This document shows positions 5,793-39,171 of a stretch of DNA of 56,533 bases, piece by piece. The DNA comes from a virus: the IMG/VR virus record IMGVR_UViG_3300043811_000163, positions 1 to 56,533 of that record, one strand, 5' to 3'. A program made the position numbers and the translations under genes. The number at the start of each line of letters is the position of its first letter. Position 1 is the first letter of the stretch. The notes beneath the pieces were generated by a model. It was not told the origin of the DNA, ran no database searches, and saw only the letters and a list, made by a program, of their open reading frames with translations.

Positions 5793-6644
5793 TCACGACG
5801 CGCCTCCTTCTTCGAGCTTCACGACTTTGCACCTTGTCAGCGTGGTCTGAGCCTCGCCGTTGTAGTCTCCGAGCTTCTTGACGGTGCCCTTGATCGACAC
5901 CCATTTGCCGAGATCCTTGCCCATGAGAGGGCAGGCATTCGAGAACCACACGAGGCATTCGCCGGTCTCGGCGCGGAACTTGTTCATCCAGGTCGGGAAA
6001 GGCCCATCGATGCCCACCTTCAGCGCGAACTCGAACAGCGCGCGTTTGATCTCGACCTTGGCACCGACAGCGCCCGCGTGCTTCGAGTCGGGCAGGCTCG
6101 CCTTGATGCCGGCGATGCGCAGCGTCTCCGCGTCCTCGGCATCAGGCTCCGTCCAGCGCGTGCCCTCCGTGATCGCCGTGATGTACCGGGCAGCGCGCTC
6201 CTTCTCGAACTTGCTGCAGTGGTTGCTCGACACGATGGCGCGGTAGGTCCGTAGCTCTTCGGCGTGCTCGATTTCGGCGCGCGCGGCACGTTCGGCCTTG
6301 CTCTCGCGCTCGACGCGCTCTCGCTCCATGCGCTCCCGGTACTCGGGGCTCGCGCGATACTGCTCGAGTTCATACTCCTTTTCGGCCCGGCGAATCTCCG
6401 CGAGGTCGGGTCCGCCTTCGAGCGTCACGGCGCAATCGCGCCCGACGTCCATGACTTGTCCCTTCTCGCTCTTGACCCGAACGACGTAGCGGATGCCGGC
6501 TCCGCACTTGTCGCAGCACGAGCCGGGAACGACATGCGCGTCGGGCGTCCCTGCCGCGACGACGAACGCGCTCTCTCGAAATCCGATGACTTCCCACCGG
6601 ACCGGTGCTTCCTTGGTTCCGTACAGCGGCGTGGCGGCGTTCAT
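5793..6644 (-). CDS. Phage protein with N-terminal Zn-binding motif and C-terminal OB-fold-like domain
   Basis: CDKCGAGIRY...VGRDC; C-terminal VWFS...IKGTVKK...YNGEAQTTLTRCKV. Confidence 0.6.
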   Translation of the reverse strand: MNAATPLYGTKEAPVRWEVIGFRESAFVVAAGTPDAHVVPGSCCDKCGAGIRYVVRVKSEKGQVMDVGRDCAVTLEGGPDLAEIRRAEKEYELEQYRASPEYRERMERERVERESKAERAARAEIEHAEELRTYRAIVSSNHCSKFEKERAARYITAITEGTRWTEPDAEDAETLRIAGIKASLPDSKHAGAVGAKVEIKRALFEFALKVGIDGPFPTWMNKFRAETGECLVWFSNACPLMGKDLGKWVSIKGTVKKLGDYNGEAQTTLTRCKVVKLEEGGAS

Positions 6645-6664
6645 CACCTGCTCCCTTCAGCTAC

Positions 6665-6693
6665 TAATATAACCTCGGGTTCGATTGCGTCAA
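6665..6693 (-). promoter_or_regulatory. Sigma70-like early promoter with operator copy 4
   Basis: Minus strand TTGACG-caatcgAACCCGAGGT-TATATT, followed by an AAGGGAG RBS. Confidence 0.8.
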
Positions 6694-6854
6694 GGTCCAG
6701 GGAGCCGATGTAGATACACCGCGGTGTGGGTCGGTCGCCCTCCTCCCAGGCGACATCGATCGCGTCGGTATCGAGCTCGGGATAGTGGCGGAGAAGCAGC
6801 CGGGCGCCTGCCTCCACAAGCGCCCGGATCTCAGGGTCGGTCGAGTACACTGGC

Positions 6855-7598
6855 TCACTCCGCGGCCGCGTCTTTGGACCAGCCAAGTGCATCGGCGACG
6901 GATTCGCCGGCTTTCGCTTCGGCCTTCGGCTCTACGGGCGTCATGTCGCCGGGAAGCCTGGCGAAGTCCTCGAAGATGGCGCGCGCGGAGACCACGCCTT
7001 CGGCCGCTTCCGGTTCGCGCATCGGCATGACGATGACGAACAGCTCGGGCACGTTCGCGCTCGTGATCACGATGGGGCCGCGGTCTTTGGTCGGACGGAT
7101 TCGAATCGAGGCTCCCGTTCGCTCGGATCCCAGCGATTGAAACGCCTTGGCCGCGTCCGCGATATAGAGCGCGTTCGCGTACGACAGCGTGTTCGACGTG
7201 TCGTCCGGGAACACTTGCGGCAAGGGCGGGAACGTGGCCTGGACCGCGCGAAACTTCACGGCCGCGTTGCCCGCGGTCAAGGTCCCGTCGCTCTTGCCTT
7301 CGGTCAGTTCGACCTCAGCGAACGCCGGTTTCTTGCCCGCAGCCTTGACGAACGCGTTGACGTCTGCGAGCGAGATCAGAAACTGCGTTCGGACGTCGCC
7401 CTCGATTCGGAACGCGCTCTCGACGAATCGATAGAGCGCCAGCCTGTGGCCGTCGGTTCCTGCGAGGTCCAGGCTCGGCCCGTTCAGATCGACGCAGACC
7501 GAATTGAGCTGCGGCCGGGTTTCATCCCGGCTCACATGGGTCGCGACGGCTTTGAGCGCCGCGATGAATCGAACAGGATCATTGAATGACAGTTTCAT
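6855..7598 (-). CDS. DNA polymerase III beta-clamp (DnaN)-like protein, two-domain fragment
   Basis: VSRDETRPQLNSV...GTDGHRLA, FPPLPQVFP, NALYIADA, FVIVMPMR resemble clamp domains 2-3; AAGGAG RBS before ATG 7598. Confidence 0.8.
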   Translation of the reverse strand: MKLSFNDPVRFIAALKAVATHVSRDETRPQLNSVCVDLNGPSLDLAGTDGHRLALYRFVESAFRIEGDVRTQFLISLADVNAFVKAAGKKPAFAEVELTEGKSDGTLTAGNAAVKFRAVQATFPPLPQVFPDDTSNTLSYANALYIADAAKAFQSLGSERTGASIRIRPTKDRGPIVITSANVPELFVIVMPMREPEAAEGVVSARAIFEDFARLPGDMTPVEPKAEAKAGESVADALGWSKDAAAE

Positions 7599-7794
7599 GA
7601 TTGTCTCCTTCAGGGTCAGACGCATTCGCGTCGGTAATATCCGAGACCCGCCGTCTTCGACGGCTCGGGCGTCTTCGGCTCGTTCCATTCGTGCCCGCAC
7701 TCCGTGCAGCGCTTGCGAAGCGCTGTGGGTCGTACATAGACGAGCTCGATCGTGTCGCACCCGCATTCGGGGCAGTGGCCGTCCCAGGCTCGCA

Positions 7795-7974
7795 TCAGTC
7801 TCTCTCCACAGGCGCTTGCCGCGCTGCTTTGGGGTCACCGAAGTCGATGTCCGAGCCGCCGCACTTGGGGCAGCCCGAATCGCCGAACGAGGCCCGTTCC
7901 GCCGCCTTGACGGTCCGGAACGCGTGCCCGCATTCCTGACAGTAGAATCCGCATCCGTTGGTCTTGGTGGCCAT
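7795..7974 (-). CDS. Small zinc-ribbon protein
   Basis: Hand translation: MATKTNGCGFYCQECGHAF...CPKCGGSDID; AAGGAG RBS after promoter copy 5. Confidence 0.6.
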   Translation of the reverse strand: MATKTNGCGFYCQECGHAFRTVKAAERASFGDSGCPKCGGSDIDFGDPKAARQAPVERD

Positions 7975-10848: not shown

Positions 10849-11287
10849 GCAAGGCTGAAAGGAGCCCCGCACATGAGCAAGCCTATCACGGTCATCGATC
10901 TCTGTTCAGATCCACTCTGCGGCAACGAAGCCACGCACACGATGATCTCGCGCGTGCCGGGACACCGCACGAAGGTCTGCGCTAACCACCTCGCGCAGGT
11001 CCAGACCGCCGCCGAGAAGGCGGGGCTCGGTGAGCGCGTCAAGCTCCTCGACATTCGGCCGATTGAGATGCAGTCGTGAGCACACCCACCGTGGTCCTTT
11101 GGGACCCGTGTCCGTCGCATCCTGGATACGAGAACATTGAACGAGGACCATCGCATGAATGCATGCGTGGCGAACTCCGATGCGTATATTGCGGCGCGCC
11201 TATCGACCCGGTGCAGTGCAACGGTTGCGGCCGATTCATTTCGATTGCCGAGATCAACAAGTACGAGTCCCGTTGCGCGGAGTGCGC

Positions 11288-11698
11288 ATGAGCGACGCCC
11301 TCACCAAGCCCCCCTCGGCCGGGTCAATGGACCGTGTGGCCGAGCTCAAGGCGCGAGTCGACGATCTCAAGGCCAAATGTCGCGAAGCGCAAGACACCCT
11401 AACCCTCATAAAAGGGACCGCAGATCCGTCTGGCCGCAACAACTACTGGAAGCGCTTCCACGCAGCCAAAAAGCATTGGAACGATTGTGTCCGTCAGCTC
11501 CAGGAGGCAAAAACAGACCTCGTTCGCGCCACCGGAACGACTGGTAGCGATCCACGATGGCACCTGATTGCCGAGGCGTGGAGGCTATTGCAGCGGCTCG
11601 AGGACCACGGAGTCGATCTGGGAGAAGATGGCCGAAAACTGCTGGACGAGATCGAATTCCACATCCCGACATCCAAGCTCACAGGTGACTCCACATGA
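11288..11698 (+). CDS. Hypothetical coiled-coil protein
   Basis: ATGA-coupled ORF (MSDALTK...) with a heptad-like segment. Confidence 0.5.
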   Translation: MSDALTKPPSAGSMDRVAELKARVDDLKAKCREAQDTLTLIKGTADPSGRNNYWKRFHAAKKHWNDCVRQLQEAKTDLVRATGTTGSDPRWHLIAEAWRLLQRLEDHGVDLGEDGRKLLDEIEFHIPTSKLTGDST

Positions 11699-12279
11699 AT
11701 CCCGTCGAGAAGGACGCGATCTGGTCGATGTCCTCGACGCCCTTCGGCGGCCGACACCGATTCCGTATTCTCTCGATCCGAGGTACGGTCGCGATCATCA
11801 AGCTCGAGGGAACTGGAAGAGAGACCACGATCGCGCTATCGGTATTGCATCGAGGAAGCCGGGGCTCTCGCATCGAGGTCACGGCAGACGGAAAAGTGAT
11901 CGACCAGGCCGCGCACCAAGCGCAAGTCACCGCGAATCGGATGCGAAGACGGAACGAGAAGAGAGCGAGACCATGCGCCAAGCAACGCGAAAGCAAGAGC
12001 ATGTGAACTCGCTACTCGGGCGCATCGAGTATCTGCGAGGGCGCGTGCGCGCACTAGCGCAAGAGAACAGAGAACTGCGAGAAGACAATCTGCGATTGCG
12101 AGCCGAGAGGAGAATTCGATGCGACCGAAAGCCAAGCGCTGCCTTGCCGACATCCTGAAGGCGCTCGATGCCGCGGAGGTCGGACGCGACATCTCGAAAG
12201 AGGAATGGCGCGAGATTCTCGAGGAGGTTGGAAGTGCTGTCGAGATACGAATCGATTGCCTCAACGAAGAGGAGTTAGC

Positions 12280-12819
12280 ATGAGACTGGACGCTACCGCG
12301 CTCTTGCCGTTTGGGTTCGACTCGGGGGCCACCTTCAGCGAGTGCCGCAAGTACAGGTACCGCCTCTGGCGAGCCTGGGGCGATCGAGAGCATCGGTGCG
12401 TCTTCGTCGGTCTCAATCCGTCCACTGCTGATGAAAACGTGGACGACCCAACGATTCGCAAGTGCGTGGGCTTCGCGAAGCGCTGGGGCTTCGGCGCGAT
12501 CGACATGGTGAACGTGTTCGCTTGGCGATCGACGGATCCCGACGGCCTTCTTTCGGCAACGCCGAATCACGTGGGGCCAGACAACACAGAGACGCTGGAG
12601 CGCGCGTTCAACGACGCGCACCGCATCGTGTGGTGCTGGGGCAAGCACAGCGCTCGTGTTCGGCGTCTCGTGCAGTGCGCGCAGCAGGAGTTAGGCTGGT
12701 TCACGACTCCAAAGCGATGCGAGGTCGGCACGTTTGGGCGAATGGCTGATGGCTCACCGAGGCATCCACTCATGCTGGCATACGTGACTCCTTTCGTTCC
12801 GGAGCCGGTTCATGAGTGA
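12280..12819 (+). CDS. DUF1643 family protein
   Basis: GATFSECRKYRYRLWRAW, VFVGLNPSTADENVDDPTIRKC, NVFAWRSTDP, GSPRHPL. Confidence 0.9.
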   Translation: MRLDATALLPFGFDSGATFSECRKYRYRLWRAWGDREHRCVFVGLNPSTADENVDDPTIRKCVGFAKRWGFGAIDMVNVFAWRSTDPDGLLSATPNHVGPDNTETLERAFNDAHRIVWCWGKHSARVRRLVQCAQQELGWFTTPKRCEVGTFGRMADGSPRHPLMLAYVTPFVPEPVHE

Positions 12820-13009
12820 GCCCGCGCACCGCCTTATCGTGAGCGCCATGGTGACCGCCGTGATCTTCAGCATGCTCACGGTCGCCGTTCGCGCTTCCCC
12901 CGGATCATCTTGCCAGCACACGCCGCAGTGTGGACACGGCGAAGTCTGCCTGGCGGACGGACCATTTGCTACTGTCGGGCACTGCGTAAAATTGAGGATA
13001 CTTCCGTGA
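12812..13009 (+). CDS. Small exported Cys-rich protein
   Basis: Hydrophobic N-terminus, then SCQHTPQCGHGEVC...GHC. Confidence 0.45.
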   Translation: MSEPAHRLIVSAMVTAVIFSMLTVAVRASPGSSCQHTPQCGHGEVCLADGPFATVGHCVKLRILP

Positions 13010-13497
13010 AGCCATCGCGCATCCGCCGTCACGTCTGGGGCGAGGACGACGTCTGCATCCAGTGCGGCCTGGCTCGAGACGGCTTCACGATCGATCGTGC
13101 AACCTCGACGCGAACGAGGTACACGAACTTCGAAGGCTTCGTGTTCGCTGCAGCGGGAGAGTGCAAGCCGCGCAGCACAGAAGAAGTGGAAGCGTCGCGC
13201 GTCGCGGCGCAGTACAGGCGAGCGAAGTCATGACCATCGGACGAGAGAAAGGCACCGTCATGATCGATATCGACGTCACGATCGAGATTCGGGCCCGCGC
13301 GCAGTGCAGCGAGTGCGGGCGATCGATCGAGACGCGGCACGAACTCGACGAGGTCGAGGCCCAGCGCATGTCAGTCAATCTGCTCGGTCACGTCGTGAAG
13401 GACGTACGCGAGAAAGTGGACCAGGAGATGCAGTGCCGAGGCTGGCGCGAGGTTTGCGGTCGATGTAGAGACAAGGACGTACCGGGAGACGGAAGCC

Positions 13498-14037
13498 GTG
13501 GACCTTCGCAGTGATCTCGAGCAGCGCGCGGCGGATTTCGCGACCGCGGCGCACAGTCTGATCGGGCAGACTCGCAAGTACACGGGAGAGCCATACTGGA
13601 CGCACTGCCGCGCCGTGGCCGAAATCGTACGAACCGTGCCGCACTCCGAATCCATGCTGTCGGCCGCTTGGCTTCACGACACAGTGGAAGACGTCGGGGT
13701 GCCGCTATCGTTGCTCGAGGCGAAGTTCGGGCGGGACGTGGCCGAACTCGTCGAGATGTTGACCGACGTGTCGAAGCCGAGCGATGGCAATCGCGCAGTT
13801 CGCAAGCATCTCGACCTAGCGCACACCGCGCGCGCGAGCCCGTCGGCAAAGACGATCAAGCTGGCCGATTTACTGGATAATACCCGGTCGATAGTCGACA
13901 GAGATCCGAAGTTCGCCACGGTCTACCTTCCTGAAAAATTGGCCCTGCTCGAGGTCTTGCACGAAGGCGACGCCACGCTCTGGGCCCGCGCACACAAGTT
14001 GGCCCTGGACGGCTTGGCCAAACTGAGGGAGACTTGA
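13498..14037 (+). CDS. HD-domain small alarmone hydrolase (Mesh1/SAH, RelA/SpoT hydrolase-like)
   Basis: AH...QTRKYTGEPYWTHCRAV, AAWLHDTVED, FGRDVAELVEMLTD, IKLADLLDN are the hallmark SAH motifs. Confidence 0.85.
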   Translation: MDLRSDLEQRAADFATAAHSLIGQTRKYTGEPYWTHCRAVAEIVRTVPHSESMLSAAWLHDTVEDVGVPLSLLEAKFGRDVAELVEMLTDVSKPSDGNRAVRKHLDLAHTARASPSAKTIKLADLLDNTRSIVDRDPKFATVYLPEKLALLEVLHEGDATLWARAHKLALDGLAKLRET

Positions 14038-14040
14038 ACC

Positions 14041-14478
14041 ATGGCCGAGGAAGAAACCAGATTCTACGACTTCGATAACATGCCAGCCTTCGTCAAGGGC
14101 GGCGCGTTCCGACTGGTCACGCCTGCCGGCGAGAAGCGTATCGAGGACATCGCGCGATTCCTGCAAGACGCCCAGCCTATTTCGAAAGAGCAGTTCGATC
14201 GGCTGTGCGCGGGGGGTCGAGCCGATGCGGGCGAGTCGAAGAAGGCTGGACTCGAGCCGCTGAAGGACGAGAAGGCCGATGCGGTCCCTGGCCCAGGTCT
14301 CGACACGGTTGTCATCGATGACATCATCGCAAACCCAGGCAAGTACCGAAAGCAGTGGGCCGAAGACACGCAGCATCAGTATCCTGGCAAGTACACGCAA
14401 GAGCAGCTCGACGCATCGTGGGATCAGCTGGCGCATCAGGTCGGATTGCCGACTGCGAAAGAACTCGACGCGCGTTAG
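14041..14478 (+). CDS. Hypothetical two-part acidic protein; candidate immunity protein
   Basis: Starts 3 bp after the HD gene; its stop overlaps the stop of the portal polyprotein (convergent). Confidence 0.6.
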   Translation: MAEEETRFYDFDNMPAFVKGGAFRLVTPAGEKRIEDIARFLQDAQPISKEQFDRLCAGGRADAGESKKAGLEPLKDEKADAVPGPGLDTVVIDDIIANPGKYRKQWAEDTQHQYPGKYTQEQLDASWDQLAHQVGLPTAKELDAR

Positions 14479-17400
14479 CCTTTCGGCGGCGTATAACTCA
14501 TCGTGTAGTAGCTAGGGTGGTCGAATTCCTTGTAATCCCATCCATTGGCCGCGTACTCTGGATTGAACGAGTTCTCGGATGTCGGTTTGAATCCGACCGA
14601 TTCGTAGAGCTTGTTCAAACGCGGGCCGTAGCACTCGACGTAGTTCACTCCGGCATTGCGCACGACGTGGTCGAGTAGCTTGAGCCCGGCGCCCTTCTCT
14701 CCACCCTGGTTGAATAGCGCGGTCGCCTCGACGCGACCATCTCCGTGATCGTGAACTGCAACGCCGGCTTTGCCGTCGGGCGTCGTGAACAGTTTCATGT
14801 GCGCGAGGTCGTCTTCGCTGTAGTGCGAGACATGATTCGTGAACTTTGAGCCTTCGAACGCCTTATCGAAGGCGGCCTTGAACTCGTGGGGGCTCGCGGT
14901 CTTTGGCGTGAACGAAGTCGCAGGAGACGCACTGCCGCCCGCGCCGAATCGGCCTTGCTCGTCGCGAGGATGCTTGCCCTCATCCCAATCGCCCGCATCC
15001 TGCCGAACTTTCGACCAGACACCATCGTATAGAGCTTTCGACTTGGCGGTTTCTCGATCCACGGTCGCGCGTTCGTCAGGCGTGAGGTCGCGACCTTTAG
15101 CAGCGGCTTGGATATTTCGAATCGTCTCGTACATTCGATGCCCAGGGCCATTTTTCGCAGCGAGCAGTGGTTTCAAATGGACCTGCAGTTCGCCAATGTG
15201 CCCGCTCGGATATTTGACGTTCATCATCACGTCGCGATAGCCGAGTGCTGTCGGGTTGCTCATCCGATCTTTGGGCATGCGCGCGAGCGTGATGCCTTTC
15301 TGCTTCATGGCCTCAATTACGCCGCGAACGTCCTTGACCGAGTCGACGGCCACGGTAGCGCGGACTACGTCACCAAGCTTGCTCCAATCGCCATTGTAGT
15401 CGGCATTGACCTTTTGCTCGGCACGCGCTTCGTGCTTGATGGGTCCGATCCCGACAACGGGCCCGGGATGACTGAGGTCGAGTTTGTCGTTGAACTCTTG
15501 CTCGCTCATGTTGAGGTCGCCACGAACGACTTTCGCACCGATGGCTTGGGCGACGCCTTTGCCGCGGTCGAGCAGATCCAACTGTTCTTCATGAATGGCA
15601 GGTGCCGCCTTGAAGAGTGCTTCCTTCGTGCGTTCGGGCTGCGCGAACTCTTTCGGGACGCTTGCGAGCTCGCTCTCTTTGAAGAGAGGCTCGCCGTGGA
15701 TGCTTTCGGCAGGCGATGCGCTGCTGCCTCCCGAGCCGAATCGCCCGCGCTCGTCTCGTGGCTGGTCGGCATCGAAATCGCTGCGCGTGCTGTCGCGTTT
15801 TGGTACTCCTCCGTAATCCGAGATTAGAAACTTCCCGGACTGTCCACGACCCCACTGGTTCGAATAGGCGAAGTCGGAGAGATCAAGCTTCGGAAGCTTC
15901 GAGCTTAGCTCCTTCATGGCGGTCAAGAATTGGCCAGCGGACTTCATCTTGTCGCCGGACTTGCCCCCATGAATCGCCTGATACGTAGCCGCGAACAGCC
16001 AGTCCTTGCCGTGAACATCTTGATCCCCGCCCCAAGGGTCTTTGATTGTGACCGTGTACGATTTCTTTTGGTCGGCCTTCGAGATGCCAAAGTGATCGGC
16101 CAATTGCGCCGATGTCACCGGCTCCACTTTCTCCTGCCGTACCCAAGAGTAATCTGGTGCGTGCTCTGTGATCTTGGCTAGGATATCGCTCTTGCTCGAA
16201 GCCTCTGCTTCTGCTCGATTGTCTTTCTTGGCTTTCGCGTTCTTGGCGACCTTGATGACAGTGTTCCCATCTTCATAGACTTTACGGGACGCGCCTTCGC
16301 CGAGGACTTTGAGTTTCGAAGTGTCAGGATGCTCGGAGACGGTACGGGGCTCTGTGCTACCGCCACCTTCCCCAAACTGTCCGTTGGCGGCGCGCGGCTG
16401 ATCGTCCGAGTAATCAGCTTTTGGGGTCGAGCCTTCGCTCTCACCTCCGGCGCTATCGATGAGCGCCTGCAGCTTGTCCTCGTCGAGCGAGTCGAGGTAG
16501 TCCGCTGCAGCTTCCGTCACGAGCTGCGCCAGCCATTCTTCGGGATCCGCGTCCGCATCCGAATCGTATCGGAGAGCGTCGATCGCGTCGTGAATAGCAC
16601 CACCGAGGTCTTCACCGAGATTGTATCCAGCGAACGACAATCCCTTCTCGGTCATCTTCTCGAGCGCGTGGTGCGCGATCTGGTGAGCGATCTTTTCGGA
16701 GACGAGCCTGACGGCTTCATGGCCGATCGCCTCGAGAGGCAGCAATCCGACCACGTGGCCGGCGACCACGCTGGCAGCGATCCCAATCGCGACCTTCGCG
16801 ATGGCGTGCTTCTGCTCTTTGGTCACCGGCTGTCGCGTCACGAAATTCTTCACCCCGACAATGGCGTTCTTATACTCGCCGATCTTCTCTTTGACCTCGT
16901 GCAGCGCGGCCTTTCCGATCTCTTTCGCTCCCGACCGTAGCACGGAGCCGACATGCTTCAGGCTCTCCTTGAGTTTGGTCAGGTGAATGCGCGTCAGACG
17001 AGATTGCGCGGCGTGTTCGTGTGCGCCGGATCGCTCTGGCTTGACGCGGCTGGCTGTACCACCCGATCCGCCCGCGGAGAACTTGCCGGTCTCGTCGCGC
17101 GGATGGTCTTCCTCGACGAAGTCGTCGGCGCGCGTCTCCGGCAAGATCGCTTGCACGGTCTTTCTGAAAGTGTGCGCGCCCGACAGAAGCTCTCCGCTCG
17201 ACAACCACATCACGGTGGTATTCGGTTCTGCCGCAAAGGCTTCTCCCACGAACTCGAGCGCCTCGAACACATTGACCTTGCGACCGTCGACCGGAGACAG
17301 AACCGACGGCAGCTTGCGGAGCTTGGTCGCGGTCACCCCGGTTTCTTCACGCAGTTCGCGGATCGCCGCGTGCTGCGCGGTCTCACCCTCGTCGATCATT

Positions 17401-19820
17401 CCGCCCGGGAACGCGAACTCGTGCGGGAACTCGGGACGCGTGACCGTCAGATATTTGCCTTGCTCGTTTTTCACCACGACGATCGAGGCTTGCCCCTCTC
17501 GATCATCGGCTGCGTCATTGGTCGCAAACGGATTGTGCATGGCGTGCGCGCCGGCTTTGGCCATGTGATCGTTGGCGATCTGGAAATGGCGCGCGGAGGC
17601 ATCGGAATGCCGGGCTCGATCGTCCACGGACACGCGATGCCCGGATGCCATCGCTGCGCGTCTATTGCCTTCGCGAATGTGCGCGACGCTGGCTTCCATG
17701 TGGGCGGCTGCAGCTTCCCGGTGCGCAGGCAAGGTGCCGAGCTTGTAGGCCAGTTCGGACGCTTCATTTGCAGCCTTGGTCCCGTGATCGATCCACTGCT
17801 TCGATCCAGGATCTCTCGACTGGTCCGGGTCGTGCGCGTCGAGCGCATCCTTCTGTATGGGCTCCTGCGGAGGCTTCGGCGTCAAAGCTTCGGCCTTGCC
17901 GATGTGCTTGGCGGCTTCTGCCGTGTTTCCTACGCCGAGATGGGCATTGGCTGCACGCAAATGGAGCTTGGCGAGATTGGTGGCTTTCTGCGGAGGCGTG
18001 AGCGGTCCAGGCTTCTTCGGAGCCACTGCGGGGCCCACAGCGGGCTTCGCCTTGACCTCCGGAGGGATCGGTTCCTTCTTCTTCTCGTCTCCGGCGCCCG
18101 GGGCTTGATCCGGCTGCGATTCGTCCTCGGCCGGATTGCCGGCTCCCTTGTCGGGCGGCGTTCCCTGGCCTTCCCCTGCGGGAGCCACGACCGAATGAAG
18201 CGCACTTCCGGGCAGAGGCACAGTGGGCGATTGACCTTCCGGAGTTCCACCCCCGGCGCCCCCACCCAGCGCCTGCACTTGAGCCGATGCGGAAGGATCG
18301 TTCTCGTACGGATCGAACTTGGTCTTCTCTTCGATCTCTTCTTCGATTTCCTCGACGTCGATCGACTGGTAGATGTCGCTGAGCGTGAGCGCGACTTGCT
18401 CGGCGGTCACGACCTCGTTTTGGATGTAGATCTGATCGCGCTGCGCGTTGGTGAATCGCGTCTTCGCGAGCTCGTCATCGGTCGGAGCGTAGAGCGGATG
18501 GAAATGGACCTTGAAATCGACCGGCTGTCCCTTGAAGGGAGAATCATGGGCGAGCGCGATGAGTCGGTAGAGCCGTCGGATTTTCGGAGCAAGGAAGTTG
18601 ACTTGCTCGTTGGCGATCGTGTCGTACCACTTGATTCGATCCGACTCTCCGGTCGCGTTCATTCCGGCCGGGCTCATGCCGAAGAGTTCGGTCAACGGCA
18701 TATCGAACGCCGCAGCGAGCCGCTGCATGATGCGGTCGATCGCGTCGGGGATCCCCGTCATCGGGGTCACCACGCGCGTGAAATCTTCTTCGCCGCCCGC
18801 ATCGAGCGCCACGCCGTGCATGACGCTGCGCGTGCGCTCCATTAGCTCGAGACGAGCTCGGAGCTTGCCTTCCTGGCCCGCTGTGATCGCGTTGAAGAGG
18901 CCCTTGAGTTTGAAGATGCCTTGCGACGCGTCCGAGATCAGATACGCGAGAGCATCGAAGGATCCATCGCACTGCCGGAGCACTTCGTAGCCGCGCTGCA
19001 GTACCGACCAGGACCAACCCGCGAGCGTTTGCCGCGTGATGATGTCGGGCTCGACTCCGTCGAATCGAATCAGGCGGCTCTCGTGGACGTTGAGAATCGA
19101 GGTTGCGATGTTCGCGAGCTTGGCCTTGCTCTTGGTCTTGTAGCCGAACTTGGTTCCGTCGGAGCTTCGGTACGACGAGGTCGCGACCGCGTTGGCGATG
19201 AGATACGTTCTCGGCTGCCCATACTTGGGCTGCATCGGGTCGGAGTAGTAGTCCTGAACGTACGCGAACCTTCGATCGATCTGATTGATGAAGTCGAAGC
19301 TCTTGATGTTCTTTTCGTCCAGCGGCTCCCACGGCTCTCGTCCGTCATCGATTCCCAGGATGAGCAGCGCGCCGCCGTACTGCCGGCCGAAGGTCAAGCC
19401 TTGGTGCAGCCGCAGATCGCATTGCAATCGCTCGGTCGCGTATTCGCTCAGGTCTTGAATCTTCGACTTGTCGAGCTCTCCGGCCTTTTTGCTCTCGAGC
19501 TCGTAGCCGCGCCGGAACATCTCGTTCGGACGCTTCTCCACGGCTTTCGCGGCGAGATCGTTGCCGGAGACGAGATCGGTGATCTCGACGTCGTTCAGGC
19601 GCCAAGGCGTTTCGAAGTACCCGGCTCGGGTCTTGTCCGCGATCGTGCCGAGCCCGGTCTGGTAGTTGACCCAGCGGTCTAGCTTTTGCTCGAGAGCGAA
19701 GATGCGGGTTTCCGCGTCCTCTCTAGAAGCAAGCGTCTGCGCGGCGGCTCGGCGCAGATCCGATCCGTCATTGGCCGGCGATGCCGCCGGGACTGCGGCT
19801 TCGGCCGGACCATGCTCCAT
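14475..19820 (-). CDS. Portal protein (DUF1073-like) fused to Nudix, kinase-like, RelA/SpoT and GNAT domains (polyvalent protein)
   Basis: Portal: DRWVNYQTGLG, GRQYGGA, VHESRLIRFDG, MPLTELFGMSPAGMNATGESD. Nudix box GGMIDEGETAQHAAIRELREETGV. Kinase-like LGEGASRKVY..VIKVAK..DYG. Synthetase KHEARAEQK, DVVR, GYRD, ELQVH, HRMYE. GNAT-like KGAGLKLL..LYESVGF. Confidence 0.9.
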   Translation of the reverse strand: MEHGPAEAAVPAASPANDGSDLRRAAAQTLASREDAETRIFALEQKLDRWVNYQTGLGTIADKTRAGYFETPWRLNDVEITDLVSGNDLAAKAVEKRPNEMFRRGYELESKKAGELDKSKIQDLSEYATERLQCDLRLHQGLTFGRQYGGALLILGIDDGREPWEPLDEKNIKSFDFINQIDRRFAYVQDYYSDPMQPKYGQPRTYLIANAVATSSYRSSDGTKFGYKTKSKAKLANIATSILNVHESRLIRFDGVEPDIITRQTLAGWSWSVLQRGYEVLRQCDGSFDALAYLISDASQGIFKLKGLFNAITAGQEGKLRARLELMERTRSVMHGVALDAGGEEDFTRVVTPMTGIPDAIDRIMQRLAAAFDMPLTELFGMSPAGMNATGESDRIKWYDTIANEQVNFLAPKIRRLYRLIALAHDSPFKGQPVDFKVHFHPLYAPTDDELAKTRFTNAQRDQIYIQNEVVTAEQVALTLSDIYQSIDVEEIEEEIEEKTKFDPYENDPSASAQVQALGGGAGGGTPEGQSPTVPLPGSALHSVVAPAGEGQGTPPDKGAGNPAEDESQPDQAPGAGDEKKKEPIPPEVKAKPAVGPAVAPKKPGPLTPPQKATNLAKLHLRAANAHLGVGNTAEAAKHIGKAEALTPKPPQEPIQKDALDAHDPDQSRDPGSKQWIDHGTKAANEASELAYKLGTLPAHREAAAAHMEASVAHIREGNRRAAMASGHRVSVDDRARHSDASARHFQIANDHMAKAGAHAMHNPFATNDAADDREGQASIVVVKNEQGKYLTVTRPEFPHEFAFPGGMIDEGETAQHAAIRELREETGVTATKLRKLPSVLSPVDGRKVNVFEALEFVGEAFAAEPNTTVMWLSSGELLSGAHTFRKTVQAILPETRADDFVEEDHPRDETGKFSAGGSGGTASRVKPERSGAHEHAAQSRLTRIHLTKLKESLKHVGSVLRSGAKEIGKAALHEVKEKIGEYKNAIVGVKNFVTRQPVTKEQKHAIAKVAIGIAASVVAGHVVGLLPLEAIGHEAVRLVSEKIAHQIAHHALEKMTEKGLSFAGYNLGEDLGGAIHDAIDALRYDSDADADPEEWLAQLVTEAAADYLDSLDEDKLQALIDSAGGESEGSTPKADYSDDQPRAANGQFGEGGGSTEPRTVSEHPDTSKLKVLGEGASRKVYEDGNTVIKVAKNAKAKKDNRAEAEASSKSDILAKITEHAPDYSWVRQEKVEPVTSAQLADHFGISKADQKKSYTVTIKDPWGGDQDVHGKDWLFAATYQAIHGGKSGDKMKSAGQFLTAMKELSSKLPKLDLSDFAYSNQWGRGQSGKFLISDYGGVPKRDSTRSDFDADQPRDERGRFGSGGSSASPAESIHGEPLFKESELASVPKEFAQPERTKEALFKAAPAIHEEQLDLLDRGKGVAQAIGAKVVRGDLNMSEQEFNDKLDLSHPGPVVGIGPIKHEARAEQKVNADYNGDWSKLGDVVRATVAVDSVKDVRGVIEAMKQKGITLARMPKDRMSNPTALGYRDVMMNVKYPSGHIGELQVHLKPLLAAKNGPGHRMYETIRNIQAAAKGRDLTPDERATVDRETAKSKALYDGVWSKVRQDAGDWDEGKHPRDEQGRFGAGGSASPATSFTPKTASPHEFKAAFDKAFEGSKFTNHVSHYSEDDLAHMKLFTTPDGKAGVAVHDHGDGRVEATALFNQGGEKGAGLKLLDHVVRNAGVNYVECYGPRLNKLYESVGFKPTSENSFNPEYAANGWDYKEFDHPSYYTMSYTPPKG

Positions 19821-19829
19821 GCAATCGCA

Positions 19830-19857
19830 AACGTAGGTACGAGCCTACTTTCGCGGC
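19830..19857. promoter_or_regulatory. Back-to-back -10 boxes for the portal (left) and protease (right) genes
   Basis: TACGTT on the minus strand (19835-19830) and TACTTT on the plus strand (19846-19851) within a 37-bp intergenic gap. Confidence 0.6.
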
Positions 19858-22101
19858 ATGGCGGAAACTGTCGCTGACGCACCTCTCTCGGCCAAAGAGA
19901 CCGAGGACATGCCCGAGGCCCATTTCGCGGATCCGGAAGGAAAACGCTTCCCTCTATACGATCCGAAGACCAAGGCGCTCAGCGCGGAGCACGTCAACGC
20001 AGCGGGTTCCTACGCGGAAAAAATGCACAATTCTGGTGAGATCTCCGATGCGAAATACAAGGAGATCATCGCCAAGGTCAACAAGGCGAAAAAGACGCTG
20101 AAGATCGGCGATTTCGCGGACGACAAGAAAGACTACGACCGCACGCAAGCCGCCAATCCCGTCGAGGACGAGGCCGTTCAGAAATGGACGGCGGCCTCGA
20201 AAGACATCCACCGCGCCGACAATCCTCCGAGCTGGGTCGATGATGAAGCCACGTGGGAGAAGGCCAAGGAGGCGGTCGGCAAGGACTGGGACAAGTACGA
20301 CGATCCGTACGCGGTTGTCGTCTCGGTCTACAAGAACATGGGCGGATCGATCGGTGGCGGAGGCAAATCCGACCATGCCGATGCGGGTGAGCATTTTGGC
20401 GACACGGGGCTCGACCAACCCGGTTGGGAGCATGTCCGCCGCGTCGATTTGGCCTCGGGTTCAGTCGGCGAGTCCCGGACGACTCCGCAAGGCGGCATCA
20501 TCGCGCGCGCGAACCTCACTCGGACAGGGGTCTTCGACTACCGCCAGCCGGACGGCACGATCCGCCGAGAACTGAGACACCCCGACGAGGTCTTCGACAA
20601 GAAGAGCCTCGATTCCTTGGCTCATGCGCCGCTCACGATCGATCACCCCGACAAGGTCACGCCGCACAACTACAAGCGCGTCACGGTCGGCCATGTCGCG
20701 GGAACCCCGCATCGGGCAGGCAAATTCGTGCAGCAAGACGTGCTCGTGCAGGACGCGGATGCGATCGATGCGGCCAAGAAGGGCAAGCTGCAGGAGCTCT
20801 CGTGCGGCTACGAGTGCGCCATTGATCCCACGCCGGGCGACTACAACGGCGAGAAGTACGATGCGATCCAACGTCGCATTCGGTATAACCATGTAGCCGC
20901 GGGTCCGGCAGGCTGGGGAAGAGCCGGCCCCGAAGTGCGCATGCACCTCGACAGTGGTGCGGCCATCAGCTTGGCGCCCGATGCGGCTGCGTCGCCATCG
21001 GCCATGGCGCGCGAGGATGCCTCGCCTGGCAGTACGCACTCGGCGGCCGCGAATGCTCGAAGCGCAGAAGTCAAAGCCTTCGAAGATCATCTGCAGCCCA
21101 AATCGAAGACGGAACACAAGAAGGCGGCCGATGCCCATATGCAGGCTGCAGAAGCCCACGATTACGCGGCGATTCACGGCGATCCGTCGATGAAAGCCGA
21201 TCACGAAAAGGCCGCTGCCGATCATCGACAAAAGTCCGCAGATCACATTGCAGATTGCAATAAGCTCGACGAGGGTCACGCCGATCCCCGACCCGATCCA
21301 GGGTATGGGACTACGGCCGATAGTCGAGCGCCCTACGTTCGCGCTATGCCCGTCGAAACCGACGAAGAGAAGCGCCGCAAGGCCGAAGAGGAAGCGCGTG
21401 CAGAGAGGGTGCGGATCGACTCCGAACTCGCTCAGCTGCGCAGTGACAACGAACGACTCCGCGGCGAGAACACCGCGATGAAGTCGTCTAGCACGAGCGC
21501 CACGCTCGCCGCACAGCAGCAGATCGAAGCGCAGCGCATGGACGCCGCGTTCGACGAGATGTTCGCCGCGGTCGATGCAGGCACGCGCTACGTGAAGGAC
21601 TTCAACCGGTACCGCGCCGATGGCTCTCGCAAGAGTGTCTCGGACATCCGGCGCGAAGTCGTTGCGGCGCTCAAGCCGTCGATCCGGATCGACGCCAAGG
21701 AGACCGACGCGTTCATCGCGGGCGTCTTCTCCACGATCGTGCAGGAGAGGGAAGCAGCGGACCGAGGACGCGCCGCGATGGCGTTCGCGTCTTCGCCGCT
21801 CATCACGCCGGCCATGTCCCACGCCGACGCGGGTCGAAGAATGGGCATGAAGAAGCCCGATCGCGCCGCGGACCCGGACGACGAACCGGACGACGACGAG
21901 CCCGACGCCGAGACCAAGAAGGCGCAGGACAAGATGTTCCAGAAAATGAAGGACGCGTACAAGACCCGCGACAAGGGCGGGATGTCGCGCTTCTCGGCTC
22001 GGGATCGTCGCAAGGGAGACGGCCGCGCTCCCAATCCGACTCCTGCCTTCAACGGTGGGAATCAGGGCGACTTCAACGGCGGCTTCGGCGGAGGAATGTG
22101 A
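19858..22101 (+). CDS. Prohead protease (DUF2213-like) with N-terminal extra domains and a C-terminal scaffold
   Basis: TPQGGIIARANLTRTGVFDY, RHPDEVF, PLTIDHP, ELSCGY, NHVA...GRAGPEVR. Confidence 0.88.
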   Translation: MAETVADAPLSAKETEDMPEAHFADPEGKRFPLYDPKTKALSAEHVNAAGSYAEKMHNSGEISDAKYKEIIAKVNKAKKTLKIGDFADDKKDYDRTQAANPVEDEAVQKWTAASKDIHRADNPPSWVDDEATWEKAKEAVGKDWDKYDDPYAVVVSVYKNMGGSIGGGGKSDHADAGEHFGDTGLDQPGWEHVRRVDLASGSVGESRTTPQGGIIARANLTRTGVFDYRQPDGTIRRELRHPDEVFDKKSLDSLAHAPLTIDHPDKVTPHNYKRVTVGHVAGTPHRAGKFVQQDVLVQDADAIDAAKKGKLQELSCGYECAIDPTPGDYNGEKYDAIQRRIRYNHVAAGPAGWGRAGPEVRMHLDSGAAISLAPDAAASPSAMAREDASPGSTHSAAANARSAEVKAFEDHLQPKSKTEHKKAADAHMQAAEAHDYAAIHGDPSMKADHEKAAADHRQKSADHIADCNKLDEGHADPRPDPGYGTTADSRAPYVRAMPVETDEEKRRKAEEEARAERVRIDSELAQLRSDNERLRGENTAMKSSSTSATLAAQQQIEAQRMDAAFDEMFAAVDAGTRYVKDFNRYRADGSRKSVSDIRREVVAALKPSIRIDAKETDAFIAGVFSTIVQEREAADRGRAAMAFASSPLITPAMSHADAGRRMGMKKPDRAADPDDEPDDDEPDAETKKAQDKMFQKMKDAYKTRDKGGMSRFSARDRRKGDGRAPNPTPAFNGGNQGDFNGGFGGGM
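21346..22101 (+). CDS. Putative nested scaffolding protein (internal in-frame start)
   Basis: CCTACGTT-6nt-ATG inside the protease gene, in frame at Met497; charged coiled-coil product MPVETDEEKRRK... Confidence 0.6.
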   Translation: MPVETDEEKRRKAEEEARAERVRIDSELAQLRSDNERLRGENTAMKSSSTSATLAAQQQIEAQRMDAAFDEMFAAVDAGTRYVKDFNRYRADGSRKSVSDIRREVVAALKPSIRIDAKETDAFIAGVFSTIVQEREAADRGRAAMAFASSPLITPAMSHADAGRRMGMKKPDRAADPDDEPDDDEPDAETKKAQDKMFQKMKDAYKTRDKGGMSRFSARDRRKGDGRAPNPTPAFNGGNQGDFNGGFGGGM

Positions 22102-22109
22102 GCTAGGCC

Positions 22110-22736
22110 ATGCCCCAGACCAACGTCAACCTCACCCCGAACCCGGCGCAACCGGGCCAGCCGCTCTCGAACGATCGCACGAGCTACCTCGTTCGCTGCG
22201 TTCCTGCCGGAGTCGTCGTCCCGTTCGGCGTGCTCTGCGAGGTCTATGCGGCCTCCAACGGTCAGGCCCTGTGCCGTCCCGTGCAGGACGCGACCACGGG
22301 ATCCTCGTTTCTCCCGCTTCTCGGCGGCATCTCGATGCTCGACGCGTTCGCGGTGGAAATGGGATACACCACGTACTCGGTTCCGCCGAGCACGACGGGA
22401 TCGTCGTCTGCGGGCTACCCGATCGGCTTCTCGGTTCCGCTCGTGTACCGCGGCGGAATCTGGGGAGCCTGGGACGGCAATACTGGCACAGCGCTCCCGC
22501 TCACGGGCGGCATCCAGGTCTGGCACTCCAGTGACGGGTCGCACTCGCAGGGCGTGTTCACCACGCTCTCCGCGCAGACCACGCTGCACCAGGAGATCGA
22601 CGGACCCTTGCCGTACATCACGGTGTGGGATCCCTTCCTGAAGAGCGGCGCGTACACGGATTCCTTCGGGAACGTCGTGGACATTGTCGCTCTGCAAATC
22701 AACCTGCCGGGGCTTCTGACCCCAGGAGTCGTCTGA
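22110..22736 (+). CDS. Capsid decoration/minor head protein
   Basis: Located between protease and major capsid; VPFGV and YRGGIW motifs typical of this slot. Confidence 0.65.
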   Translation: MPQTNVNLTPNPAQPGQPLSNDRTSYLVRCVPAGVVVPFGVLCEVYAASNGQALCRPVQDATTGSSFLPLLGGISMLDAFAVEMGYTTYSVPPSTTGSSSAGYPIGFSVPLVYRGGIWGAWDGNTGTALPLTGGIQVWHSSDGSHSQGVFTTLSAQTTLHQEIDGPLPYITVWDPFLKSGAYTDSFGNVVDIVALQINLPGLLTPGVV

Positions 22737-23917
22737 TGGGTCGCGAACGCGGACAAGTGCAGCTCTCGGCGGACAACCCGTACGCGGGCATGGCCACCGC
22801 CAAGGTCTTCTCGGATCACAATCCGTTCGAGGGCTTGCCGAAGTACGACTCGCGCTTCGCTCGATCGTACGCGCGAAACATCCTGCAGACCAACGGCTAC
22901 TTCGCCGAGCTCGCGCAGGAAATGCGCCAGGACGGCTACCTGCGTCACGACGCCGGGCTGTCTCTCGCCTTCGCCCGTTCGCTCGAGTGGATCATCCGCA
23001 AACCGTACGAAGCGGAGTACCCGGAGCTCCGAGCCGCAGAATTCCTGCCGCTCATGACCGAGGTCCCGCCCGAAGCGGCCACCTTCACCTACCGCATGCT
23101 CGACAAGGTCGGGCAAGCCGCGGTGATCCAGGAAAACGGATCGGACGCGCCCAAGGTTTCGCTGAAGGGATCGGAGTGGCAGAGCCCGATCGTGACGATC
23201 GGGGCGAGCTACGACTACACGATCCTCGACACGCTGCGCGCCGGCAGGATGAACATCCCGCTCGAGGCGTACAACGCGGAAGCCGCACGATTCGCGTGCG
23301 AATACCTGCTCGAGAACATCGCGGCTGTGGGACTTCCGAACTCCGGCGTTCCCGGATTCACGAATGCCCCGGGCGTCTCCGGTTCCGCTCAGGTCTCCAC
23401 GGGCGGCAACTGGATTGCCCAGATCGCCTCGATCGCGCAGGCGTCCACGACCAACCCGACCCCGCCAGCGGTTGCCGTCACCCAGGCCATTGCGGGCGAC
23501 ATCAACGCCGCCATCAAGAAGGTCTTCGTGGCCACCAAGGGCACGCATCGACCGGACACCGTGCTCGTGGGCTACAACGCCTACGGCGCGCTCATGACGG
23601 CGCCGCGAAGCCCCGGATTCACGGGCGACACCATCCTCGACTACCTGGAGAACCTCTGCCAGGTCAATATCGAGTGCTGGCCGCAGCTCGACACGGCGGG
23701 CTCTGTGACCACGACCTACGCAGGCCAGAACTACAACGGCCGCGTCATGGTCTACAAGAAGGACCCGAAGCTCCTGAACCTCGTCGTCTGCCAGCCGTTC
23801 ACCCAGCTGCCTCCGCAGCCGATCCGGATGGCGTGGGAGGTTACCACCTACATGCGCACAGGTGGGGTGACAGTGCGCTACCCTCTGACAGTTACCTACA
23901 TCGATTCTGTGTCCTGA
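22736..23917 (+). CDS. Major capsid protein (DUF2184-like, HK97 fold)
   Basis: FARSLEWI..KPYEAEYPELRA, FTYRMLDKVG, VMVYKKDP, FTQLPPQ, RTGGVTVRYP; TGATG coupling at 22734-22738. Confidence 0.9.
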   Translation: MGRERGQVQLSADNPYAGMATAKVFSDHNPFEGLPKYDSRFARSYARNILQTNGYFAELAQEMRQDGYLRHDAGLSLAFARSLEWIIRKPYEAEYPELRAAEFLPLMTEVPPEAATFTYRMLDKVGQAAVIQENGSDAPKVSLKGSEWQSPIVTIGASYDYTILDTLRAGRMNIPLEAYNAEAARFACEYLLENIAAVGLPNSGVPGFTNAPGVSGSAQVSTGGNWIAQIASIAQASTTNPTPPAVAVTQAIAGDINAAIKKVFVATKGTHRPDTVLVGYNAYGALMTAPRSPGFTGDTILDYLENLCQVNIECWPQLDTAGSVTTTYAGQNYNGRVMVYKKDPKLLNLVVCQPFTQLPPQPIRMAWEVTTYMRTGGVTVRYPLTVTYIDSVS

Positions 23918-38682: not shown

Positions 38683-39171
38683 ATGCCGCTGGTGTTCATG
38701 GCCGCCAAGCGTGCGATCCGGCGGCTGCCGTCGAGCGTGCAGTTCGATGATCTCGTCGCGGCGGGCACGATTGGCCTGCTCGACGCGATGCGACGATCGC
38801 CCAATCGGGGTTCTTCCTTCAGCGCATACGCGCGCGTCAGGATTCGTGGAGCCATCCTCGACGAGCTCCGATCCCAGGACTGGCTGAGCCGTAGAGCGCG
38901 CAAGCGCCTACCGGACACGGTCTTTCTCGAACTGTTAGATCACGCAATCGAAGACTCTCCGCAAGAGCGGGCCGTGCTGCGCGCATCCATTGCCCGTGCG
39001 ATCGTCAAGCTTCCCTTGCGGGAAGCCGAGATCGTTGCTGGCTACTACATCGAGGGCGTCTCATTTTTGGAGATCGCCAAGCGGCTCGAGATCAGCCAGG
39101 CGAGGGTCTCGCAGTTGCATTCGCAAGCGATGGATCGATTGCGGGCCGAACTTGCGCGGGAGGATCGCTAG
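38683..39171 (+). CDS. Minimal RNA polymerase sigma factor (FliA/WhiG-like regions 2 and 4)
   Basis: PLV..RLPSSVQFDDLVAAGTIGLLDA, FSAYARVRIRGAILDELRSQDW, LPLRE..YYIEG.SFLEIAKRLEISQARVSQLHSQA; the true start may be slightly upstream. Confidence 0.85.
   Translation: MPLVFMAAKRAIRRLPSSVQFDDLVAAGTIGLLDAMRRSPNRGSSFSAYARVRIRGAILDELRSQDWLSRRARKRLPDTVFLELLDHAIEDSPQERAVLRASIARAIVKLPLREAEIVAGYYIEGVSFLEIAKRLEISQARVSQLHSQAMDRLRAELAREDR

Follow-up and report, generated by a model that had tools for sequence, protein, structure and literature searches.

Fusions of phage portal proteins to PBECR, 2H, InPase, Nudix and ART domains have already been described, as predictions, as effectors which are loaded into the phage head and reach the host by injection (Iyer et al., 2017, PMC5512222; Iyer et al., 2022, PMC9503650). 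Here we describe a portal gene located at 14475-19820 on the minus strand of a 56,533-nucleotide stretch of viral DNA (positions 1 to 56,533 of IMG/VR record IMGVR_UViG_3300043811_000163, hereafter the window), in which the portal is followed by six cargo modules in the order His-rich, Nudix, hydrophobic, kinase-like, Tas1-like predicted (p)ppApp-synthetase and GNAT-like. The class of portal-fused effectors is less new than was rated in a first-pass annotation of the sequence, as it has been predicted in print; what was not found in the available text of the two papers, their online supplements aside, is a six-module portal, a repeated tag, release after aspartate by a DUF2213 protease or a cognate antidote gene.

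The polyvalent proteins of these authors resemble the window chain in that several conflict enzymes are joined in one head-associated chain, and their repertoire includes a kinase without a C-lobe, GNAT, RelA/SpoT and Nudix domains. They are defined by at least two conflict domains in one polypeptide of a phage with the portal-terminase system (PMC5512222), a combination which the window chain shows; it is, however, without an MPTase of its own. The MuF toxins provide a tested analogue (PMC5576092, PMC3482391), in which the C-terminal cargo likewise varies among relatives (Jamet et al., 2017, PMC5576092), and in the Apk2-Tis1-Aph1 triad a head protein with a Tas1-like synthetase precedes a small partner gene and, beyond it, an HD hydrolase gene (PMC10083569), as in the window. 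Whether toxins fused to MuF or portal proteins are packaged and injected is posed there as an open question, on which the present locus yields exact predictions, since it specifies the protease, the bonds, the new N-termini and the antidote pairs. The window locus differs in that the carrier is the portal, with no PF04233 in the chain and with MuF encoded by a separate, distant gene of 324 amino acids (aa); in that many cassettes are carried instead of one; and in that the partner genes lie on the opposite strand, convergent with the carrier, the small partner having two units and no match to Tis1 above the thresholds used. Furthermore, MuF toxins are reported in temperate phages, whereas the window genome is without an integrase match.

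In T4, the head protease gp21 cleaves the capsid targeting sequence of the internal proteins and of Alt, and the packaged proteins are processed and then injected. The arrangement proposed here is alike in that a head protease would process packaged proteins which are later injected (for Alt, see PMC5512222), but the T4 cargo is encoded separately and loses its targeting peptide, whereas in the window the portal itself bears the cargo, and a released piece would keep its tag. The portals of the Pbunavirus phages E217 and Pa193 (gp19, 765 aa) are closer in kind, being PF06381 portals with a C-terminal InPase, found together with a DUF2213 protease and with Ala-x-Asp just ahead of the visible N-terminus of the capsid protein; in contrast to the window chain they have a single cargo domain, no tag match was noted, and alanine stands in place of a basic residue before the aspartate. 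The portal cargo is left unidentified in the available text of the Pbunavirus papers (PMC10329688, PMC11456595).

An intact portal-cargo fusion in a polymorphic clade

The gene is a single uninterrupted open reading frame (ORF) of 1,781 aa with zero internal stops. Its N-terminal part (aa 80-463) was matched to the PF06381 portal family in a Pfam profile search (E 1.1e-70, 238.6 bits against a cut-off of 33.8) and to PHROG 146 (E 3.6e-92), and its best matches in the PDB were the portal structures solved for Pam3, Pa193 and E217 (8HDS, 9B41, 8FVH). The portal core (PF06381/DUF1073) covers aa 1-503 (18312-19820, minus strand), and in its N-terminal part Asp35 and Asp48 each precede a candidate cut site. 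The first-pass annotation had read this N-terminus as a portal, which these matches confirm, and its domain coordinates agree with ours within about 100 nt; it had also raised the concern of hidden stops or a chimeric assembly. One Logan contig from a soil run spans 13000-21000 with 0 differences at a depth of 18, and this run may itself be the source of the DNA; two further runs gave short pieces only, none spanning the portal gene, and no RNA dataset was listed among the runs holding the stretch.

When proteins of 979-3,117 residues were searched with the portal part, 74 of the 7,999 scored candidates matched, the window protein being one of them; the module counts given below refer to these 74 long portals. 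A tree was made of the best 36 of the 74, and cargo layouts were assigned by a 16-module scan which is approximate, the Nudix of P0004 having escaped it. One clade (support 100/100) unites the 19 closest long portals and shows 18 distinct cargo layouts, and sister pairs in the tree differ in cargo, so the cassettes have been shuffled on a conserved portal. Amongst the cargo of the relatives are zeta toxin, ADP-ribosyltransferase, metallopeptidase, C39 peptidase, topoisomerase IB and ParB-like domains; the polymorphism of cargo amongst portal homologues, a check proposed in the first-pass annotation, is supported by this comparison. The modules of the window chain recur in frame in homologues, P0002 carrying His-Nudix-kinase and each of P0005, P0004 and P0015 hydrophobic-synthetase-GNAT, which provides independent support for the ORF. 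An assembly chimera or accidental read-through might be suspected as a single run, possibly the source, holds the whole stretch, yet it is very improbable given these independent in-frame homologues and the matching partner genes that adjoin the portal gene, and a chimera is excluded by the 18 differing layouts within one clade. The chain at 14475-19820 is therefore a real, intact portal-cargo fusion.

Two further portals were observed in the course of these searches. A distant long portal, P0073, carries an Acb1 anti-CBASS domain together with an ADP-ribosyltransferase, whilst the portal at L132/L133:4222-6602, on contigs of isolate-type records, ends in one distant RelA/SpoT-like tail, has a small gene downstream and represents an independent portal-synthetase fusion.

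A repeated tag and an aspartate site shared with other head proteins

Most modules of the chain open with a tag, DxxxHPRDxxGxFG, of which the chain has four complete copies and a degenerate fifth; Nudix is the sole module without it. Across the 74 long portals 49 distinct tag copies were found in 26 proteins, with [RKH]-x-D just upstream of 41 of the 49 as against 15.5 +/- 3.0 in within-window shuffles, although the copies are related, so that the shuffle P value overstates their independence and the figure speaks for conservation more than for independent recurrence. At five other spacings the count of [RKH]-x-D was 4 to 17. In four head proteins of the genome [RKH]-x-D-[ASG] was observed 22 times where 10.6 were expected (Poisson P 0.0014), compared with 1 against 3.6 expected in 15 tail and neck proteins and 11 against 12.8 in 14 non-virion proteins.

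The same aspartate is common to the boundaries of the capsid and protease proteins. It stands at the end of the capsid propeptide in 38/38 capsid proteins (the full [RKH]-x-D in 25/38) and at the end of the protease domain in 51/52 ([RKH]-x-D in 40/52); in the window phage the protease domain terminates in His-Leu-Asp, and the propeptide of the major capsid protein (PF09950 by Pfam; 22736-23917, plus strand) in Arg-His-Asp. Published capsid N-termini fall at or close to this site. The N-terminus of the TLS capsid protein determined by Edman degradation, ASDMGIW (PMC11447400), comes directly after Lys-Asn-Asp in the TLS capsid sequence; the T1 capsid model begins at residue 27 (PMC11945409), directly after Lys-Gln-Asp26, which aligns with the Arg-His-Asp of the window phage; and the E217 model begins at 66, two residues past Ala-Met-Asp64. 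All three phages have a PF06381 portal and DUF2213, and TLS and T1 also have PF09950.

Since this Asp also closes the capsid propeptide and stands directly before the TLS Edman N-terminus, the DUF2213 head protease is a candidate cutter of the cargo chain. It is a head maturation protease-scaffold encoded at 19858-22101 on the plus strand, divergent from the portal gene (PF09979, E 6.7e-40; PHROG 530, E 1.2e-63), and lies in the same module as the cement and PF09950 capsid genes and the portal locus. Protease processing, supposed in the first-pass annotation, thus gains by comparison a candidate enzyme and a site tied to published capsid N-termini. No peptide map was present in the readable files of the Pa193 supplement, and the available text of PMC9942802 holds nothing on cleavage.

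Site and tag also occur together in portals of GenBank phages, with the tag before an ADP-ribosyltransferase in Orimi01, after Nudix in FP_Brigit, and in PhiXhv-5, where Ala-x-Asp replaces the basic version at the tag site and in the capsid N-terminal region alike; the predictions can therefore be checked without the uncultured phage. A literature search which reached few subscription journals found no publication on the tag motif and, judged from titles and listings, none on Asp-specific release of portal cargo. The strong claim that the tags are recent DNA repeats driving recombination was rejected, the four full copies sharing 34-43 of 69 bases. In L008, L051 and L102 the tag is also found on the DUF2213 protease chain, and the DUF2213 proteins bear long extensions (window 19858-20430); cargo may thus also ride on the scaffold.

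The cargo modules

The modules are given in order along the chain, all on the minus strand. The portal core is followed by a Pro/Gly-rich linker (aa 504-657, 17850-18311), recognized by sequence and with a similar stretch in 7/74 long portals, and by the His/Ala-rich helical module (aa 658-770, 17511-17849), which has the degenerate tag at its start, is present in 2/74 and has no family match in Pfam or PHROG. The Nudix hydrolase (aa 773-899, 17124-17504), found in 43/74, was matched by Pfam at residues 778-841 (E 1.3e-15 to 5.5e-17), and by sequence its Nudix box, which we take to be GX5EX7REUXEEXGU, is intact.

The next tag opens the hydrophobic helical module (aa 900-1086, 16563-17123; 8/74), for which the best 19-residue hydropathy is 2.0. 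No match was found in Pfam or PHROG, Atlas matches were all below 0.9, and short stand-alone forms numbered 0 among 6,051 candidates and 0 among 24 stretches in a viral scan; the module is a candidate membrane-active effector. A short acidic helix follows (aa 1087-1125, 16446-16562). Its profile was found in 7/8 portals with the hydrophobic module and in 0/66 others at E<0.01, having been built from five of those seven positive carriers, and by its sequence distribution the helix is a candidate in-chain partner of the hydrophobic module.

The kinase-like domain (tag included, aa 1137-1343, 15792-16412) matches PHROG 4301, a family of no known function, at E 8e-10. Kinase-like motifs are visible by eye and the domain stops directly after a DFG-like motif and would thus lack a C-lobe, which fits the truncated kinases described for polyvalent proteins (PMC5512222); there was no kinase profile match and no PDB match, and the module was found in 0 of 10 stretches in viral contigs. 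The libraries therefore lend the kinase-like assignment weak support. The fifth module (tag included, aa 1349-1608, 14997-15776) is a Tas1/Apk-like nucleotide pyrophosphokinase, with Tas1 (6OX6) as best PDB match at E 1.2e-7 and the next structure at E 0.52, whilst against Pfam RelA/SpoT it scores below the cut-off (E 0.0031). As Tas1 is closest and the synthetase motifs are invariant in 6/6 aligned homologues, the module is predicted to make (p)ppApp. The last module (tag included, aa 1609-1781, 14478-14996; 6/74) is assigned as GNAT-like on weak homologue matches: two of five aligned members match Acetyltransf_7 (best E 0.0095), GNAT structures match at E 0.3-0.4 only, and the window domain itself has no Pfam match.

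With regard to the domain list of the first-pass annotation, Nudix and the synthetase were upheld by their profile and Tas1 matches, whereas the kinase-like and GNAT-like domains were weakly supported. Its reading of the synthetase as a RelA/SpoT signalling enzyme was not sustained, since the domain resembles a Tas1/Apk-type toxin with antidote candidates adjoining.

Antidote candidates beside the portal gene

A gene of 145 aa (14041-14478, plus strand) converges on the portal stop and is a candidate two-unit antidote, comprising unit A (aa ~3-60) and unit C (aa ~86-135) with two [RK]-x-D sites between; elsewhere these units are fused to cargo. A profile of unit A, made from the first 60 residues of six close sequences, was searched against 20,343 ORFs and found to follow the Tas1-like domain in the same chain in two unrelated phage proteins (L127, E 1.5e-7; L126, E 5.5e-4), and the same order was seen by eye in L125. 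Unit C comes directly after GNAT in L136 (E 5.7e-6) and accompanies GNAT in L048. Close homologues of the gene have a different second unit, of which the window phage keeps a remnant only, and in L008 that unit adjoins a terminal module absent from the window phage. From these arrangements, unit A is likely to be the antidote to the synthetase and unit C that to the GNAT-like domain.

The predicted fold of unit A is confident (pLDDT 86). As for its identity with Tis1, there was no Pfam match and no PDB sequence match; an Atlas lead was below the bar (TM 0.30/0.56), at E<=0.001 Foldseek gave no match, Tis1 did not appear among the listed rows, and comparison of the unit A profile with small genes beside other synthetases gave a probability of 0.3. 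PF24154 had no match in the genome.

The adjacent gene (13498-14037, plus strand; PF13328, E 2.3e-17) encodes an HD_4 small alarmone hydrolase, which is Aph-like and by analogy a candidate enzymatic antidote to the synthetase. Of the 69 non-redundant portal loci having a downstream flank of 1.5 kb or more, a set that excludes less-flanked loci (L048 among them) and the window, an HD_4 hydrolase was found in 4/4 with the synthetase versus 1/65 without, and the contig of the sole HD_4 locus scored without one (L134) holds a diverged synthetase. Both genes lie on the opposite strand and are therefore expressible separately from the portal; a scan for promoters and terminators over 11000-21000 gave no more than expected by chance.

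L125, L126 and L127, which belong to larger phages, have stand-alone proteins without a portal in which the synthetase and unit A are accompanied by another repeated helix motif, which suggests a second head-targeting code.

Proposed mechanism and alternative explanations

We consider it probable that the chain is a portal-fused series of swappable effectors, built into the prohead, cut by the DUF2213 protease and delivered with the DNA, with the antidotes shielding the producing cell. The portal ring would seed the prohead with its C-termini inside, as the C-terminus of related solved portals faces the head interior and the portal barrel of E217 projects into the head (PMC10329688), and 12 cargo chains would take up about 1.6% of the DNA volume. 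The protease would then trim capsid, scaffold, MuF and portal and free the cassettes, each cut after [RKH]-x-D leaving the tag as a new N-terminus, where it may serve in retention or ejection. The freed pieces are predicted to begin at residues 900, 1087, 1137, 1344 or 1349, and 1609. The freed cassettes would exit with the DNA into the host, and the Tas1-like domain would there make (p)ppApp; unit A and the HD_4 hydrolase would neutralise the synthetase, and unit C the GNAT-like domain, at the stage of late expression and shortly after entry. As to purpose, a brief burst of host takeover and anti-defence upon infection is the most likely, and the same cargo would also poison co-infection by relatives without matching antidotes. 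If true, this would provide a cleavage rule for DUF2213 proteases and a natural format for the delivery of proteins by phage heads. It is more doubtful that the DUF1073-portal/DUF2213 phages as a whole share a plug-in code of protease site and tag, by which any enzyme could be loaded into the head and ejected via the tail, the window clade being a multi-warhead polymorphic toxin system with matched modular antidotes by which an apparently lytic phage poisons cells and rivals without them.

A number of observations weigh against this proposal. The chain contains 19 instances of [RKH]-x-D, about half of them within predicted folded domains, so the motif alone cannot define the cuts; the portal/His and His/Nudix boundaries are Asp-Ala only, without a basic residue, and Nudix begins without a tag. 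Accessibility of the site must therefore matter. The TLS authors surmised another cut site (PMC11447400), and the portal tail of Pa193 and E217 (529-765) is invisible, which fits cleavage and a flexible tether equally (PMC11456595, PMC10329688). On the antidote side, unit A also adjoins the L008 portal, which is without a synthetase, it gave no match to Tis1 above the thresholds used, the hydrolase co-occurrence amounts to about two lineages plus the window phage, and the kinase-like, Nudix and His modules are each without an antidote candidate.

It is unlikely, in our view, that the cargo is cut off during maturation only to act in the producing cell or to be discarded like scaffold, the fusion merely timing and localising late expression with no injection taking place. 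The same Asp sites do mark parts that are removed, namely the capsid propeptide and scaffold, adjoining antidotes fit ordinary toxin-antitoxin logic, and packaging and injection of MuF toxins are stated to be untested (PMC10083569). However, the tag is kept at cassette starts in distant phages with other cargo, where it would be needless on a discarded piece, and a phage without an integrase match would gain no obvious advantage from a toxin confined to the producer. We give similarly little credence to the idea that cassettes are packaged and freed but kept in the head, or remain tethered to the portal, acting on the capsid contents or during packaging. The portal-tail channel through which the cargo would have to pass is narrow and the modules are folded domains of 20-29 kDa; the unseen portal tails of relatives in cryo-EM agree with retention, and the ParB-like and topoisomerase cargoes of relatives could act on packaged DNA. 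Other cargoes of the family (Tas1-like, zeta toxin, ADP-ribosyltransferase, Acb1), on the other hand, require cytoplasmic substrates, and T4 Alt is an established case of ejection of unfolded head proteins (PMC5512222).

That only some portal subunits carry cargo, whether by slippage of the ribosome, a premature stop or incomplete proteolysis, would lower the load to fewer than 12 copies and leave the rest of the model unchanged. The last module of L053 sits in another frame and the cargo of L136 in a separate overlapping ORF, which would suit such a scheme, but in the window the whole chain is in frame and stop-free and is covered by a contig without difference (no slip-site search was made), and we hold partial loading to be improbable. 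Delivery of cassettes freed from the portal remains the reading we prefer.

Genome setting

The phage genome is one contig of 113,473 bases, the ends of which overlap by 127 bases; an exact repeat of 287 bases lies at genome 1-287 and 110844-111130, 2.6 kb before the end. Genes for a baseplate of the contractile-tail type are present. No match to a tyrosine or serine integrase (PF00589, PF00239) was found in the genome, the search being confined to those families, and no relatives of the portal clade were found in cellular genomes, hence no host was assigned. The portal gene is divergently oriented with respect to the protease-cement-capsid genes (19820/19858), unlike 42/47 non-redundant related loci; this orientation is also seen in the other 5/47 (L005, L007, L008, L021, L051). 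The terminase (genome 90385-91686) and MuF (genome 108232-109206) genes are both far from the portal gene.

In the second half of the genome there are 33 tRNA calls, with a cluster of 30 around a Ro60/TROVE gene (L003:5152-11914 and 6252-7892) and three more in L002. Two phage sigma factors are encoded, one inside the tail region (window 38683-39171) and one at L002:9197-10111. An adenylosuccinate synthetase-like gene (L001:7775-11125, minus strand) is found with two unassigned neighbours, and the purine supply it implies could relate to an ATP-draining cargo.

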